This document shows, piece after piece, positions 5,506-29,736 of a stretch of 31,326 nt of DNA. The stretch's first letter is position 1, and every line of letters starts with the position of its first letter. The position numbers and the translations under genes were made by a program. Location: assembly GCA_964016885.1 (NCBI GenBank), contig CAXHJY010000893.1:1-31326 (forward strand), read 5' to 3'. Below the pieces are notes generated by a model, which ran no database searches, was not told where the DNA came from, and saw only the letters and a program-made list of their open reading frames with translations. Origin of the DNA: Eledone cirrhosa. Lineage: Eukaryota.

Positions 5506-5619
5506 TTTCTAGGATATATATGTGTCTGTTGGTATGTATATCATATATATATATATATGGCTGACGAACGAAGCATCAATAACATCAGAATGCTTTGTGA
5601 AACTCCGAGTACCTAGAAA
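5506..5619 (+). ncRNA. Type I hammerhead ribozyme motif with intact core and interrupted stem I
   Basis: CUGACGA 5561-5567; stem II ACGAAGCAU/AUGCUUUGU (9 bp, one G-U); GAAAC-UCCGA-GUA 5599-5611. The 3' CCUAGAAA is complementary to UUUCUAGG at 5506-5513. Confidence 0.7.
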
Positions 5620-5730
5620 GGTATAAGCCGGTTTGCCATGTATTATATATATATATACATATATATGTATATACATATATATAGATATATGTATATATAT
5701 ATATATATATGTATAGTAATAATAATAAAA

Positions 5731-5865
5731 TTGAAGAGGATCCGCTAAGGTGAAACAATTGTTCTCGGTATGGTGAACTAACTGTTGTGTAACCACTTCT
5801 ACCTAACTCGTCCCTTGGACTGAGTGCTCTACCACTACGGATATTACCTTCCAGTGTTCCACCAC
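5731..5865 (+). mobile_element. Short (TA)n-flanked element with decayed hammerhead 3' half
   Basis: TTGAAGA...GAAAC-AATT-GTT (palindromic stem III), then GAGTGCTC at 5822, then the large TA array. Stems I and II are weak. Confidence 0.45.
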
Positions 5866-5922
<57 letters not shown>

Positions 5923-5945
5923 ATATATATATATATATATATGTG

Positions 5946-5978
<33 letters not shown>

Positions 5979-6015
5979 GTATATATATATGTATATATAT
6001 ATGTATATATATATG

Positions 6016-6078
<63 letters not shown>

Positions 6079-6109
6079 GTATATATATATATATGTATAT
6101 ATATATATG

Positions 6110-6174
<65 letters not shown>

Positions 6175-6533
6175 GTATATATATGTATATATGTATATAT
6201 ATATATGTATGTATATATATGTATATATATATATGTATGTATATATATGTATATATGTATATATATATATGTATGTATATATATGTATATATATATATGT
6301 ATATATATATATGTATGTATATATATGTATATATGTATATGTATATGTATATATATATGTATATATGTATGTATATATATATGTATATATATATATATAT
6401 GTATGTATATGTATATATATATATATGTATGTATATATATATGTATGTATATATATATGTATATATATATATGTATGTATATATATATGTATATATATAT
6501 ATGTATATATATATATGTATATATATATATATG

Positions 6534-6578
<45 letters not shown>

Positions 6579-6873
6579 GTATATATATATGTATATATAT
6601 ATGTATATATATGTATATATATATGTATATATATGTATATATATATGTATATGTATATATATGTATATATATATGTATATATATATGTATATGTATATGT
6701 ATGTATATGTATATATATGTATATATATATGTATATACATATGTGTATATATATATATGTATATATATATGTATATGTATATATGTATATATGTATATGT
6801 GTATATATATATATGTATATATATATGTATATGTATATATGTATATATGTATATATGTATATATGTATATATG

Positions 6874-6920
<47 letters not shown>

Positions 6921-7287
6921 GTATATGTATATGTATATATATATATATGTATATATATATGTATATATATATGTATATATATATATGTAGATATATATGT
7001 ATATATATATATCTATATATATATGTAGATATATATGTATATATATATATCTATATATGTATATATATGTATATCTATATATATATGTATATATATGTAT
7101 ATCTATATATATATGTATATATGTATATATGTATATATATATGTATATATGTATATATGTATATATATATGTATATATGTATATATATATATATATGTGT
7201 ATATATATGTGTATATATATATATATGTATATATGTATATATATATGTATATATGTATATATATATATATATATGTATATATATACA

Positions 7288-7342
<55 letters not shown>

Positions 7343-7903
7343 GTATGTATATATATATGTATGTATATATATATGTATGTATATATATATGTATGTGTAT
7401 ATATATATGTATGTATATATATATGTATGTATATATATATGTATATATATGTATGTATATATATATGTATATATATATATATGTATGTATATATATATGT
7501 ATATATATATGTATGTATATATATGTATATATATATGTATGTATATATATATGTATATATATATGTATGTATATATATGTATATATGTATGTATATATGT
7601 ATGTAATATATGTATGTATATATGTATGTAATATATGTATGTATATATATATGTATATATATATGTATATATATATATGTATATATGTATATATATATGT
7701 ATATATATATGTATGTATATATATATGTATGTATATATGTATATATATATGTATATATATATGTATATATATATGTATATATATGTATCTATATATGTAT
7801 CTATATATGTATATATATGTGTATATATATGTATATATATGTATATATATGTATCTATATATGTATATATATATCTATATATGTATATATATATCTATAT
7901 ATG

Positions 7904-7976
<73 letters not shown>

Positions 7977-8006
7977 GTATATATATGTATATATATATGT
8001 ATATGT

Positions 8007-8052
<46 letters not shown>

Positions 8053-8428
8053 GTATATGTATATATATATATGTATATATATATGTATATGTATATATAT
8101 ATATGTATATATATATGTATATATATATATATGTATATATATATGTATATATATATATGTATATATATATGTATATATATATGTATATATATATATGTAT
8201 ATATATATGTATATATATATATGTATATATATATGTATATATATATATATGTATATATATATATGTATATATGTATATATATATATATGTATATATATAT
8301 ATGTATATATATATGTATATATATATATATATGTATATATATATGTATATATATATATGTATATATATATGTATATATATATATGTATATATATATGTAT
8401 ATATATATGTATATATATATATGTATAT

Positions 8429-8478
<50 letters not shown>

Positions 8479-8529
8479 GTATATATATATATATGTATAT
8501 ATATATGTATATATATATATGTATATATG

Positions 8530-8580
<51 letters not shown>

Positions 8581-8725
8581 GTATATGTATATATATGTAT
8601 ATGTATATATATATATGTATATATATATATGTATATGTATATATATATATGTATATGTATATATATATATGTATATATATGTATATGTATATATAAATAT
8701 GTATATATATATATATATGTATATG

Positions 8726-8756
<31 letters not shown>

Positions 8757-8765
8757 GTATATATG

Positions 8766-8815
<50 letters not shown>

Positions 8816-8907
8816 TGTATATATATGTATATGTATATGTATATATATATATATGTATATATATGTATATATATATATATATATGTATATATATGTATAT
8901 GTATATG

Positions 8908-8954
<47 letters not shown>

Positions 8955-9045
8955 GTATATATATGTATATGTATATATATATATGTATATATATATATAT
9001 GTATATATATGTATATGTATATATATATATGTATATATATATATG

Positions 9046-9090
<45 letters not shown>

Positions 9091-9171
9091 GTATATATAT
9101 ATGTATATATATATATGTATATATATATGTATATATATATATGTATATATATATATGTATATATATATATG

Positions 9172-9207
<36 letters not shown>

Positions 9208-9227
9208 TATGTATATATATGTATATG

Positions 9228-9261
<34 letters not shown>

Positions 9262-9305
9262 TGTATATATATATGTATACATATATATATGTATACATAT
9301 ATATA

Positions 9306-9371
<66 letters not shown>
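5866..9371. repeat. ~3.5 kb compound (TA)n/(TATATG)n microsatellite
   Basis: Seen directly. Interruptions are almost all G on the + strand, with C variants mainly near the right end. Confidence 0.98.
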
Positions 9372-9375
<4 letters not shown>

Positions 9376-9452
9376 GTAATTCCAGGAAAAAAGAGTGCTC
9401 TATGTAGGTAACAGAGCTTAATAGTTATGTAATAAACAACATAAGGCAATTA

Positions 9453-9512
9453 TTTCATTTACCAGTAATTTCTTAAAAGCCAAAAAATCTGCTTTCAATC
9501 ATCAGAATGAAA
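9453..9512 (-). ncRNA. Type I hammerhead ribozyme (sense copy of element A)
   Basis: UUUCAUU-CUGAUGA-UUGAAAGC...GCUUUUAA-GAAAU-UACUG-GUA-AAUGAAA, giving a 7-bp stem I and an 8-bp stem II. Confidence 0.8.
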
Positions 9513-9523
9513 AAATAGGATTT

Positions 9524-9584
9524 TTTCATTCTGATGATTGAAAGCAAAATTTTTTGGCTTTTAAGAAATTACTGGTAAATGAAA
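9524..9584 (+). ncRNA. Type I hammerhead ribozyme (inverted copy in element A)
   Basis: Stem I 9524-9530/9578-9584; CUGAUGA 9531-9537; stem II 9538-9545/9557-9564; GAAA 9565-9568; GUA 9575-9577. Confidence 0.8.
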
Positions 9585-9636
9585 TAATTGCCTTATGTTG
9601 TTTATTACATAACTATATATATATATATATATATAT

Positions 9637-9845
9637 ATAGGAACCAGTAAGACACCGACGGCTGAGCTCAAGCCGTTTCGACGGCTAATTCTGGACTAAA
9701 GATTTAGTCCAGAATTAGCCGTCGAAACGGCTTGAGCTCAGCCGTCGGGTTCTTACTGGTTCCTATTACCCACTCTACTACCCTAAGTATTGAGTACTTT
9801 GGTGCGTTATGGTCCACCTGGTTCCTTACCACATTTCCTTCGTTA
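9637..9845 (+). mobile_element. Element B: 130-bp palindrome with hammerhead 3' half plus tail
   Basis: 9637-9700 pairs with 9703-9766 (2 mismatches). Contains GAAACGGC-TTGAGCTCA-GCCGTC. Tail has TATTGAGTACTT. (TA)n on both sides. Second copy at 15996-16196. Confidence 0.8.
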
Positions 9846-11353
<1,508 letters not shown>

Positions 11354-11529
11354 CACATACCTAAATGTCTATCTTTATATCGCATCGTTGTGCCGAAATT
11401 ACGAATCAAGCTCGATTCCCAGTTGGAGCTAAGTTACATCCTCAAATTCCCTCGTAAATGGACGAAAGGTGAAACATTTGTTTGTATAAACACAATATTG
11501 ATCCACAACTTCTGTCGTATATGTGTGCG

Positions 11530-26070: not shown

Positions 26071-26659
26071 GGTGGCTGCCAACTCGTTTTCGAGTACGGC
26101 CACTACTTTATATCCATGCAGAAGAACCCCTACCGATGCGCTGAACGAGTGTGACTTTTTAGTCCAGCCAGCGACATGAAAACTCTGGTATAAACACTAC
26201 ACTTGTGACAATTATTGACACATAGTGCTAGGCCCATTGTACCATGTGACGACAAGTGCAGAGAGATCTCCAGATATAAAGCAATGCCTGTGCCATGAAG
26301 GTTTTATAGTGAGCAAAGGCACTGCACAAAGCCAGTCCCACTCTCTTAACCAAGATGATATTTACCAAAAAGAAGAACAAGTCAACATCATTGGATACCA
26401 TCAGGGTTGCAGGTGTTATATCAGAGTTTTCCTTCTCCTAGAATTCTGCTTTGACAAAGGCTAAGGGGTCATCTCTCCCGGTGATTTTGGATGGCCATTG
26501 ACTCTTAAGAGCTCCTTTGCCCTTTGACAGGTTTTGTTTTTAGTCCTGCAGGATGTCCAAAGTCACCCTCCTCACCAAGAAACCTGGGTGGGGTTGCCAG
26601 TTTAGTCGCCAACGACCCGACCATGAGACCATGAGACCATGAGACAAGTTGTACTGGGA
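26071..26659 (-). mobile_element. Bipartite non-autonomous RTE-derived element, copy 1
   Basis: 5' part with CTAGGAGAAGGAAAACTCTGA joined to a C2H2-encoding ORF end (KCSVYTRVFMSLAGLKSHTRSAHR*), 3' end GTACTCGAAAACGAGTTGGCAGCCACC and a (TATG)n tail. Confidence 0.75.
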
Positions 26660-27024: not shown

Positions 27025-27184
27025 ACACATATATATATATATATACATACACATATATATATATATACATACACATATATACATACATACATACATATAC
27101 ATATACACACATACATATATATACATACATACATACATACATATACATACATATATATATATACATATATATATACATATATAT
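26660..27184. repeat. (TA)n/(TACA)n compound microsatellite
   Basis: Seen directly. Confidence 0.97.
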
Positions 27185-27230
27185 GGTGGCTGCCAACTCG
27201 TTTTCGAGTACGGCCACTACTTTATATCCA

Positions 27231-27594
27231 TATAGCGAGAATACTAGGTTGTATGAATGTAACAAGGAATACATTGTTTGTGTAGATAATATTTAATTAA
27301 CAATGGTAGATAGTATAGTTGACATGTCAAAGTAATAGATGATAGAATGAAGCAAAGTTAGTAGTTACCGTTTTGATTGCCAGGCAAACGCGGCTGGCAG
27401 AGGACGCCTGGCTAAGGCCAGGCGCCTGTTGGCCAAATGAATGGCAGAGCCAAATGAGAGGCTCTTGACCTGGTGCCGAAAAGGCAATGAGAGAATGAGA
27501 GCTTAAAGTTGTTAGTTTTATAGGGTTCTGACTGGAAGTTGCAGAAAGGGTTCTACTTCCCGTCTAGATCCAAACAAGGGAGACAACCGCTACA
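27231..27594 (-). repeat. 3' LTR
   Basis: Direct repeat of 28964-29327. Has TATAAAA and ATTAAA on the minus strand. Confidence 0.95.
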
Positions 27595-27597
27595 TAA

Positions 27598-27607
27598 CCT
27601 CCCGCCA
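27598..27607 (-). other. Polypurine tract
   Basis: TGGCGGGAGG-TTA immediately before the 3' LTR. Confidence 0.6.
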
Positions 27608-28930
27608 GAATTTTAGTGTATAAAAATCGAAATGAAAATATGTAGCAAGTTGGCGAGAATGTTGTAACAGGCATGAAAATTACGACAAAAGAATGTTTGG
27701 AAAAATCAATGATAGATATCAAGGTAGCCAACCGCTCTTGGCCAGAGAACGACTGGACATCCATCTATCCATCACCCAAAGATACAATGTAATAAAGTAA
27801 AAGTAAGAGAAGAGCTCAAAGTTCAAAATATAGTTCACAGGTGTGCAATCACTTGACAGCAGGAAAGAAAGTGTGTTCCAGAGAATGAATGCAGGTGGTT
27901 TCTGTTCTGTGGTATATCGTGAAATTTCCAACCTCCGAATGGATTTTCTCACAGGAAGAGTGCTGCAAAAATAAATTCTCTGGCTTTGGTTGTTGGTGAA
28001 GCTGTGTTGATGTATTGCTGCTGCTGTTGCTGTTGTCTCGCTGAGTGAGCGTATTCGGTGTTTAAATTCACAGTAAAAAAAAAAAAAATTTTTTAGAAAA
28101 AATGAGTTGCGCAAAGTGCTAGAAATAGCAGCCGAAGTTGATGGTCGATGTTGAGAATGCGTTGACCTGGAAGGGTCAAGAGGCCAGCGACCAGAGAAAT
28201 AAGCATTCTTAATAAATGCGCGGTTATCAACGGTAAATTTACATTGTAAATTTATAAACCGGCAAATAGAAGAATATAGCTTAAGGCTGAAGAATCCTTG
28301 GCGAGAAATGTTATCTCTGGCGTGCGGCTTTGTCTGTGAGTAGAGACATCTCTGTGAATCGAGAATTTGTGCTGCCTACACGTGCCAATACAAGGTTGAA
28401 AAAAATAATATTTCTAACGCGCGAGAAAATGATAGTGCAAGTGTGAAAGTGACAATGATGAAAAAGAAAGGCTTCACTCAGCATAATTATTGGTGTGAAC
28501 TTTGGGAAAAAAAAAAACTTGAACGATGAAGAAAACGATGAACAAAAAGGCAATGGTTCATCGAAAATAAATGTTCCTGTTGAAATGTTTTTTTAAAGAA
28601 TATCGAATTTCTTTTTTTCCCTTTTTTTTTGTTTTGAAAGAGTTCGTTGTAAGACACGAGAAACATATATATATATCGTGAAATGTTTTTTTTTTTGTTT
28701 TGTTTTGAAAGTGTTCGTTGTAAGAAACGAGAAACATATATATATTGGTGAAATGCGACAGTTAGTTGATGCGTGAGAGAAAAAGTCTGTCTGTGCAAAT
28801 TCCACATGTGCGTGTGTGCGTGTCCTTGAGTATTTTCATAGTTTGTCGATAAATTTGCTGTGTATTCGTAATGTTACTCACACAAAACCAGATGTGCTAT
28901 TTTTTGGGGTGACCACCTATAGCGATGAAC

Positions 28931-28962
28931 GGCTGCGTGTTCATATCACGTCGGGGTCACCA
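28931..28962 (-). other. Extended primer-binding site complementary to tRNA-Trp positions 45-76
   Basis: The + strand reads GGCTGCGTGTTCATATCACGTCGGGGTCACCA, i.e. the tRNA-Trp 3' end including CCA, 1 nt from the 5' LTR. Confidence 0.9.
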
Positions 28963-28963
28963 A

Positions 28964-29327
28964 TATAGCGAGAATACTAGGTTGTATGAATGTAACAAGG
29001 AATACATTGTTTGTGTAGATAATATTTAATTAACAATGGTAGATAGTATAGTTGACATGTCAAAGTAATAAATGATAGAATGAAGCAAAGTTAGTAGTTA
29101 CCGTTTTGATTGCCAGGCAAACGCGGCTGGCAGAGGACGCCTGGCTAAGGCCAGGCGCCTGTTGGCCAAATGAATGGCAGAGCCAAATGAGAGGCTCTTG
29201 ACCTGGTGCCGAAAAGGCAATGAGAGAATGAGAGCTTAAAGTTGTTAGTTTTATAGGGTTCTGACCGGAAGTTGCAGAAAGGGTTCTACTTCCCGTCTAG
29301 ATCCAAACAAGGGAGACAACCGCTACA
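28964..29327 (-). repeat. 5' LTR
   Basis: Direct repeat of 27231-27594. Confidence 0.95.
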
Positions 29328-29736
29328 TACATATAGGAGAACCCCTACCGATGCGCTGAACGAGTGTGACCCTTCAGTCCAGCCAGCGACTTGAAAACTC
29401 TGGTACAAACACTACACTTGTGACAAATATTGACACATAGTGCTGGGCCCATGGTACCCTGTGACGACAAGTGCAGAGAGATCTCCAGATATAAAGCAAT
29501 GCCTGTGCCGTGAAGCTTTTATAGGGCAAAGGAGCTCTTAAGAGTCAATGGCCATCCAAAATCACCGGGAGAGATGACCCTTTGGCCTTTGTCAAGGCAG
29601 AATTCTAGGAAAAGGAAAACTCTGATATAACACCTGCAACTCTGATGGTATCCAATGATGTTGACTTGTTCTTCTTTTTGGTAAATATCATCTTGGTTAA
29701 GAGAGTGGGACTGGCTTTGTGCAGTGCCTTTGCTCA

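Follow-up and report, generated by a model that had tools for sequence, protein, structure and literature searches.

Read-through capture of tRNA-Trp as the probable origin of a 32-nt primer site in a non-autonomous LTR element of Eledone cirrhosa

Positions 28931-28962 of contig CAXHJY010000893.1 of Eledone cirrhosa (assembly GCA_964016885.1), which was analysed as one stretch of 31,326 nt (hereafter, the window), form the primer site of a non-autonomous LTR element, 2.1 kb long, that lies on the minus strand. We consider read-through of a mature tRNA-Trp with misincorporation at position 58, already proposed in a preliminary description of this DNA, to be the best-supported origin of this site (probability about 0.8). 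Precisely, the site was probably made once, in the founder of the family, when the reverse transcriptase passed the presumed m1A58, inserted a wrong base and produced an over-long strand that landed on the LTR end. The proposal is supported by the CCA included in the match, by an un-extended parent type, by a hotspot of changes at position 58 and by changes at G37. The presence of m1A58 and m1G37 in the host tRNA-Trp is assumed here from general tRNA biology. For m1A, both an arrest of reverse transcription and a misincorporation signature have been described (PMC4787781).

The element and its flanks are made up of the following features:

27227..27230: left target-site duplication, TCCA
27231..27594, minus strand: 3' LTR, 364 nt, with 2 differences from the 5' LTR
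27595..27606, minus strand: polypurine tract, with a 2-nt spacer before the 3' LTR
27607..28905, minus strand: non-coding internal region of about 1.3 kb
28906..28915, minus strand: what is left of the original short primer site, which is 12 nt long in the parent type; it is changed at tRNA position 72
28916..28930, minus strand: 15-nt duplicate of the LTR 3' end (U5 end); family copies and the parent-type element show it to be colinear with the LTR end
28931..28944, minus strand: 14-nt extension, complementary to tRNA-Trp 45-58, with T (tRNA sense) at 28944, i.e. position 58
28945..28962, minus strand: 18-nt primer-binding site complementary to tRNA-Trp 59-76, CCA included, and free of mismatches in the window copy
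28964..29327, minus strand: 5' LTR, 364 nt, with termini TGTAGCG...CGCTATA in element sense
28980..28988, minus strand: U5 box resembling tRNA-Trp 45-53, matching the T47 isodecoder at 7/9
29328..29331: right target-site duplication, TACA, matching the left one at 3/4

We considered the 32-nt match as a real primer site because it sits 1 nt from the LTR; no tRNA gene was found in the window by ARAGORN. The two longest minus-strand internal frames gave no Pfam domain, and a tblastn search of the window element with five gag/pol proteins of relatives gave no match. The family consists of at least 571 dispersed copies, the window element having no intact gag/pol. Sixty copies were fetched and 33 of them could be measured, with a median LTR divergence of 0.9%; a 4-bp target-site duplication was present in 25, while of the remaining eight, four lie in AT repeats and read 6 and four have 0-1. 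The window element itself is inserted into another dispersed repeat (window 27184-27230 and 29328-29520), an uninterrupted copy of which lies 1.1 kb away, at 26071-26290. Elsewhere in the window, at 5600-11500, there are multi-kb AT-rich microsatellite arrays with a strong GC skew.

The CsRn1 clade of Ty3/Gypsy elements is described as having a tRNA-Trp primer site and a 4-bp target duplication (PMC2582038), both of which are present in the window element. Trp-primed relatives in the same genome carry DUF7041, protease and reverse-transcriptase domains, and a CHCC Gag motif was seen in one of the four frames tested from other Trp-primed families (L177), the window element having no Gag. These relatives and the 4-bp duplication would fit the CsRn1 clade, to which the window element, with neither Gag nor Pol, would probably also belong.

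To the host genes, the match is as claimed in the preliminary description, both in its length and in having T in place of A58. In fact, 28931-28962 correspond to positions 45-73 of the host tRNA-Trp(CCA) plus CCA, and T at 28944 is the only difference. We searched the 3.0-Gb genome with a 29-nt pattern having N at position 58 and obtained 42 matches, 35 of which fall in an array of tRNA-Trp genes on C4. With the reversed pattern as a control, the same 3.0 Gb yielded 0 matches, so the tRNA match is not due to chance. The array genes were called tRNA-Trp by ARAGORN and do not encode CCA, and both A57 and G57 are present among the host isodecoders. A58 is carried by 34 of the 35 array matches and by 38 of the 39 intact gene contexts (a few overlapping loci possibly being counted twice). 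The remaining array gene, L032:4717-4790 (G000:C4 tRNA-Trp array), has T58, together with a change in the D stem. The expectation that host genes would lack T58 thus holds for all but this one gene, which has A57 whereas the family has G57. It is identical over positions 45-73 to the window copy, which also has A57 (at 28943).

We then considered base 58 across the family, whose copies were found by an exact 24-nt core. Among at least 571 copies, 564 have T58 and 7 have C58, with no A and no G. T58 was inherited from the family founder as the product of one event and was not made at the insertion of the window copy. In four public runs, no second letter was present at 2% or more at 28944; at 28943, 28953 and 28958 most reads differ from the window copy, which for this reason we consider unusual. 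Its near-perfect match to the tRNA is likewise atypical, since 49 of 60 family copies taken in genome order (L204-L263) differ from the tRNA at both 67 and 72 and most have G57, which is the family state (only 4 T58 copies are non-G57). The A57 of the window copy may be either CpG decay or a fresh copy: L201 has A57 together with an unrestored primer site, and L267 is like the window copy, with A57/T58 and a perfect site.

Within L204-L263, C72 was restored in 11 copies and G67 in 5, G67 never alone. On the tree of internal regions (60 regions; L225, L232 and L252 were dropped for short internal cover), the tRNA-matching states occur on terminal branches only and follow a 3'-polar pattern. The tRNA-perfect copies are scattered on this tree, a single clade being rejected (p-AU 1e-5). 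None of the 571 copies combines the family junction with a re-copied A58. We infer that tRNA-Trp still primes the family and that the primer site's 3' end is re-copied from it; since this 3' part has repeatedly been restored to the tRNA state and position 58 has not, copying would normally stop before 58.

Some further observations concern these primer sites. The outer (28958) and inner (28906-28915) sites of the young subfamily are both off the tRNA at 72, by different bases. A search for tRNA-Trp copies having A67 and either C or T at 72 gave one A67/C72 gene and one capture, and none with T72; a tRNA-Trp gene with G57 and A67 (T6-A67 pair), at L099/L265, is a possible source of the family A67. 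A 46-nt block is tandemly duplicated in L081/L082 and in L084, and in the latter the tRNA is matched perfectly by the outer primer site but not by the inner one. In L252, an inverted junction joins a family copy to the LTR of another family, which carries exactly 18 nt of tRNA copy; this points to a stop that normally falls before 58 and to packaging in common.

A parent-type element, met by chance beside another locus, is present at L266:6493-8782. Its two LTRs measure 388 nt, its internal part shares 72-81% identity with that of the family, and its primer site consists of 12 nt directly against the LTR, without extension. This site, together with the adjoining LTR end, corresponds in sequence to the inner duplicate found in the older subfamily (in which the original short primer site is perfect: L070, L085, L117, L225, L267), so the family gained 47 nt in one step, 32 from the tRNA and 15 from the U5 end. 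Five older-subfamily copies with the family junction were available, three of them from the perfect-site search; four have T58 and one C58. As all five are without the 67 and 72 differences, the founder apparently differed from the tRNA at 58 alone. L272 has a second capture, alike in anatomy but at another junction, with A57/A58. The pattern search for an un-extended parent with the young LTR end gave 0 matches, and L181, which had been considered as a parent, was dropped because its junction is chimeric with the LTR of another family (family E, below).

In the proposed course of events, a parent-type element with a 12-nt primer site right after the LTR would have been the starting point. Its plus-strand strong-stop DNA would have been extended along a mature tRNA as far as position 45 or beyond, dA being placed opposite 58, and the 3' tail of this strand would have annealed to the tRNA-like U5 box on the minus strand instead of the primer site. 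The product would be the order found today, i.e. LTR, 32 nt of tRNA, 15 nt of U5 end and old primer site. This extended form has spread to the present copies (at least 571), which inherited T58, and the primer-site 3' part has been restored repeatedly, as seen on the tree, with 58 left unchanged by a copying that would normally stop short of it.

The U5-end duplicate at 28916..28930 would be the scar of such a mis-landed plus-strand transfer, and the box at 28980..28988 the putative landing site of the over-long strand. This box, which lies roughly where colinearity would place it, is the best 9-mer match in the LTR for the T47 isodecoder, and for the C47 form it is one of three tied at 6/9; its match to the tRNA is 8/9 in some copies and 5/9, by eye, in the parent type. 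A snap-back origin of the 6 nt beside the extension was also considered and rejected: the region folds (z -3.6), but LTR variants assign the bases to the U5 duplicate.

Other captures of the same tRNA were compared at position 58. Those that end in CCA and extend to position 42 or lower, which adjoin a variety of LTR ends, have 15 A, 3 C, 3 T and 1 G at 58 (n=22), i.e. a base other than A in 7 of 22. In the capture search, which allowed two mismatches anywhere, 35 hits were listed and 30 were fetched, one of which (L167) was left out as an intact gene. Of the 29 fetched captures, 5 have a changed position 58, against changes at 10 of 754 non-CpG background sites (p=1e-4); with the five unfetched rows, all A58, these values become 5/34 and 18/884 (p=0.001), plain A58 being present in 29 of the 34. 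After family E was collapsed to one row, the excess at 58 had p=0.007 or 0.0007. The comparison between captures and host genes at 58 alone was not significant (5/29 vs 1/39, p=0.08). A tally of 33 A, 5 C, 4 T and 2 G was not used, as its loci had partly been picked by the base at 57-58. Among captures that arose independently, position 58 is a hotspot at which T, C and G all occur.

The 5' ends of the captures cluster at 35-41 and 28-29, in a search that demanded a match to about position 41. Among the four captures reaching 29 or lower, G37 is changed in two, against 0 of 60 neighbouring sites at 29-44, a post hoc comparison with n=4. L119 and L160 are captures to tRNA position 28 in which C or T replaces G37, and these changes are likely to be the fossil of a second modification. 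G37 and G26 are presumably both methylated in the host tRNA-Trp. In L121 and L122, the captures end near 37; next to them, with an overlap of 3-4 nt at the joint, come 12-16 nt from the end of their own LTR, and then host-like DNA.

A different arrangement was found in family E (L170-L199, e.g. L187), a CsRn1-like coding Gypsy family with DUF7041 Gag and protease, to which L177 with its CHCC motif belongs. Here the tRNA-Trp site is split into 11 nt, 8 unrelated nt and then about 18 nt matching tRNA 37-54. Of 29 copies, 24 have the split site and the other five an unbroken tRNA copy of 40 nt, a proportion that does not represent a rate because the query was itself a filled copy. At position 58, the five filled copies have 3 A and 2 T. 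They do not form one clade (p-AU 0.005, on a tree with four long branches and with L171 left out), and the family shows repeated fill-in onto the second box. By analogy, this box may act like a primer over-extension sequence.

The T at 58 could also have entered after a read-through capture, if the family master later mutated at this position in the ordinary way, as it did at 67 and 72. Such mutation has certainly reached the tract, since these two other differences are fixed within the same 32 nt in 49 of the 60 copies, and most captures have kept A58. Nevertheless we consider this explanation unlikely: T58 is common to both subfamilies (four of the five older copies, the fifth having C), whereas the 67 and 72 differences are absent from those same five; A58 is present in none of the 571 family copies; A to T is a transversion; and 58 is a hotspot in captures of independent origin. 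The case for a templated T, from a variant tRNA-Trp primer having U58 and hence no methyl stop, comes from the array gene L032, whose A57/T58 sequence equals the window copy over 45-73, and from the A57/T58 and perfect site shared by the window copy and L267. However, the U58 gene is one of 39 gene contexts and also has the D-stem change, the family has G57 (non-G57 in only 4 T58 copies), and such a primer cannot yield the captures with C58, G58 or T47/T58. We therefore regard it as very unlikely for the family; in the window copy alone, T58 may have been templated by the A57/T58 host gene.

The preliminary description had offered extended primer pairing as an alternative. In one form of it, selection would have built the extension and left position 58 free because m1A cannot pair. 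The computed duplex energy does favour the longer site (-62.8 kcal/mol for 32 nt vs -36.6 for 18 nt), and family E keeps its second box (tRNA 37-54) apart from the 11-nt site in 24 of 29 copies. On the other hand, the tract cannot be traced in the parent type and appears along with the U5 duplicate, and selection on it was not detected: in 29 copies it is not more conserved than internal sequence, with minor alleles at 0.5% against 1.2% (2/377 vs 180/15409, p=0.33). We give this origin little credence, even though selection may account for the retention of the extension. Extended pairing is otherwise compatible with read-through and plausible for the related split-site family E, with no excess of conservation speaking for it in the window family. 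It is finally conceivable, and in our opinion extremely improbable, that a LINE-type enzyme retroposed a tRNA fragment into the primer region. The tRNA piece is indeed flanked by a short direct repeat resembling a target-site duplication, but this repeat is made up of the LTR end and the old primer site, the CCA lies exactly 1 nt from the LTR, and captures in four other families occupy the primer-site position ahead of gag/pol frames (CCA-ended fragments adjoining LTR ends were checked in five families). Read-through of the mature tRNA, with the error at 58 probably made during the same event, is the reading that we retain.

The available account of the mouse MusD/ETn elements (10.1101/2025.05.12.650695) describes complementarity past 18 nt, in a 22-nt primer site, a family-wide mismatch at m1A58 that its authors ascribe to misincorporation, and successful copies with further primer-site mismatches; the window family resembles them in all these respects. 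It differs in that its site is 32 nt long, that it is a Gypsy-like non-autonomous element rather than an endogenous retrovirus, and that here an un-extended parent type and a duplication scar are present, together with independent captures in which 58 is variously T, C or G and 37 is changed as well. In the primer over-extension sequence described for lentiviruses and spumaviruses (PMC13191261), as here, complement of the tRNA beyond 58 adjoins the primer site, and minor strong-stop products past 58 are reported in vitro, with stops at 55, 54 and 37. That sequence covers the stops at 54-55 and has a demonstrated role in transfer, whereas the window tract reaches position 45, would have arisen by capture and is known from sequence. 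In the bipartite sites of Ty1/Ty3 (PMC5371799), and likewise with the HIV primer activation signal (PMC11181671), the tRNA pairs through its T arm with sequence lying outside the 3' primer site. Both are resembled by the split site of family E and by the U5 box, although in family E the second box, 8 nt away from the site, corresponds to tRNA 37-54. For Ty1 and Ty3, strict inheritance of the primer site is reported (PMC7472051), whereas the window family restores it from the tRNA.

The concept has thus already been published for MusD/ETn, of which the window family is a longer and better-documented variant. In a literature covering subscription and older papers thinly, we found neither a capture of 32-40 nt reported for a Gypsy element nor a census of multiple capture events. 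Older retroviral clones with inserted tRNA sequence are known. The value of the present case lies in its replicates, its parent type, a probable second modification and the split-site family. It is a case from a real genome, with parent, scar and replicates, in which read-through of the m1A58 stop in the germline would have founded a large family; earlier evidence came mainly from test-tube work on HIV and was inferred for MusD. Moreover, mismatched primer sites dominate the family while tRNA-perfect ones keep reappearing, a pattern relevant to whether, outside mammals, perfect primer sites are selected against by tRNA fragments.

A census of captures would be a cheap and testable way to infer tRNA modification sites in animals for which there are no tRNA data. 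Tentatively, and with somewhat less than even odds, the whole genome might be read as a natural tRNA-sequencing record, in which dozens of read-throughs, independent of one another and made by endogenous reverse transcriptases, wrote down the stops and errors of two modifications at the least, m1A58 and m1G37 (perhaps also a stop near 26-28), and the CsRn1-like split sites served as a landing pad for viable insertions. If so, germline levels of tRNA modification, past and present, would be readable from assemblies alone.
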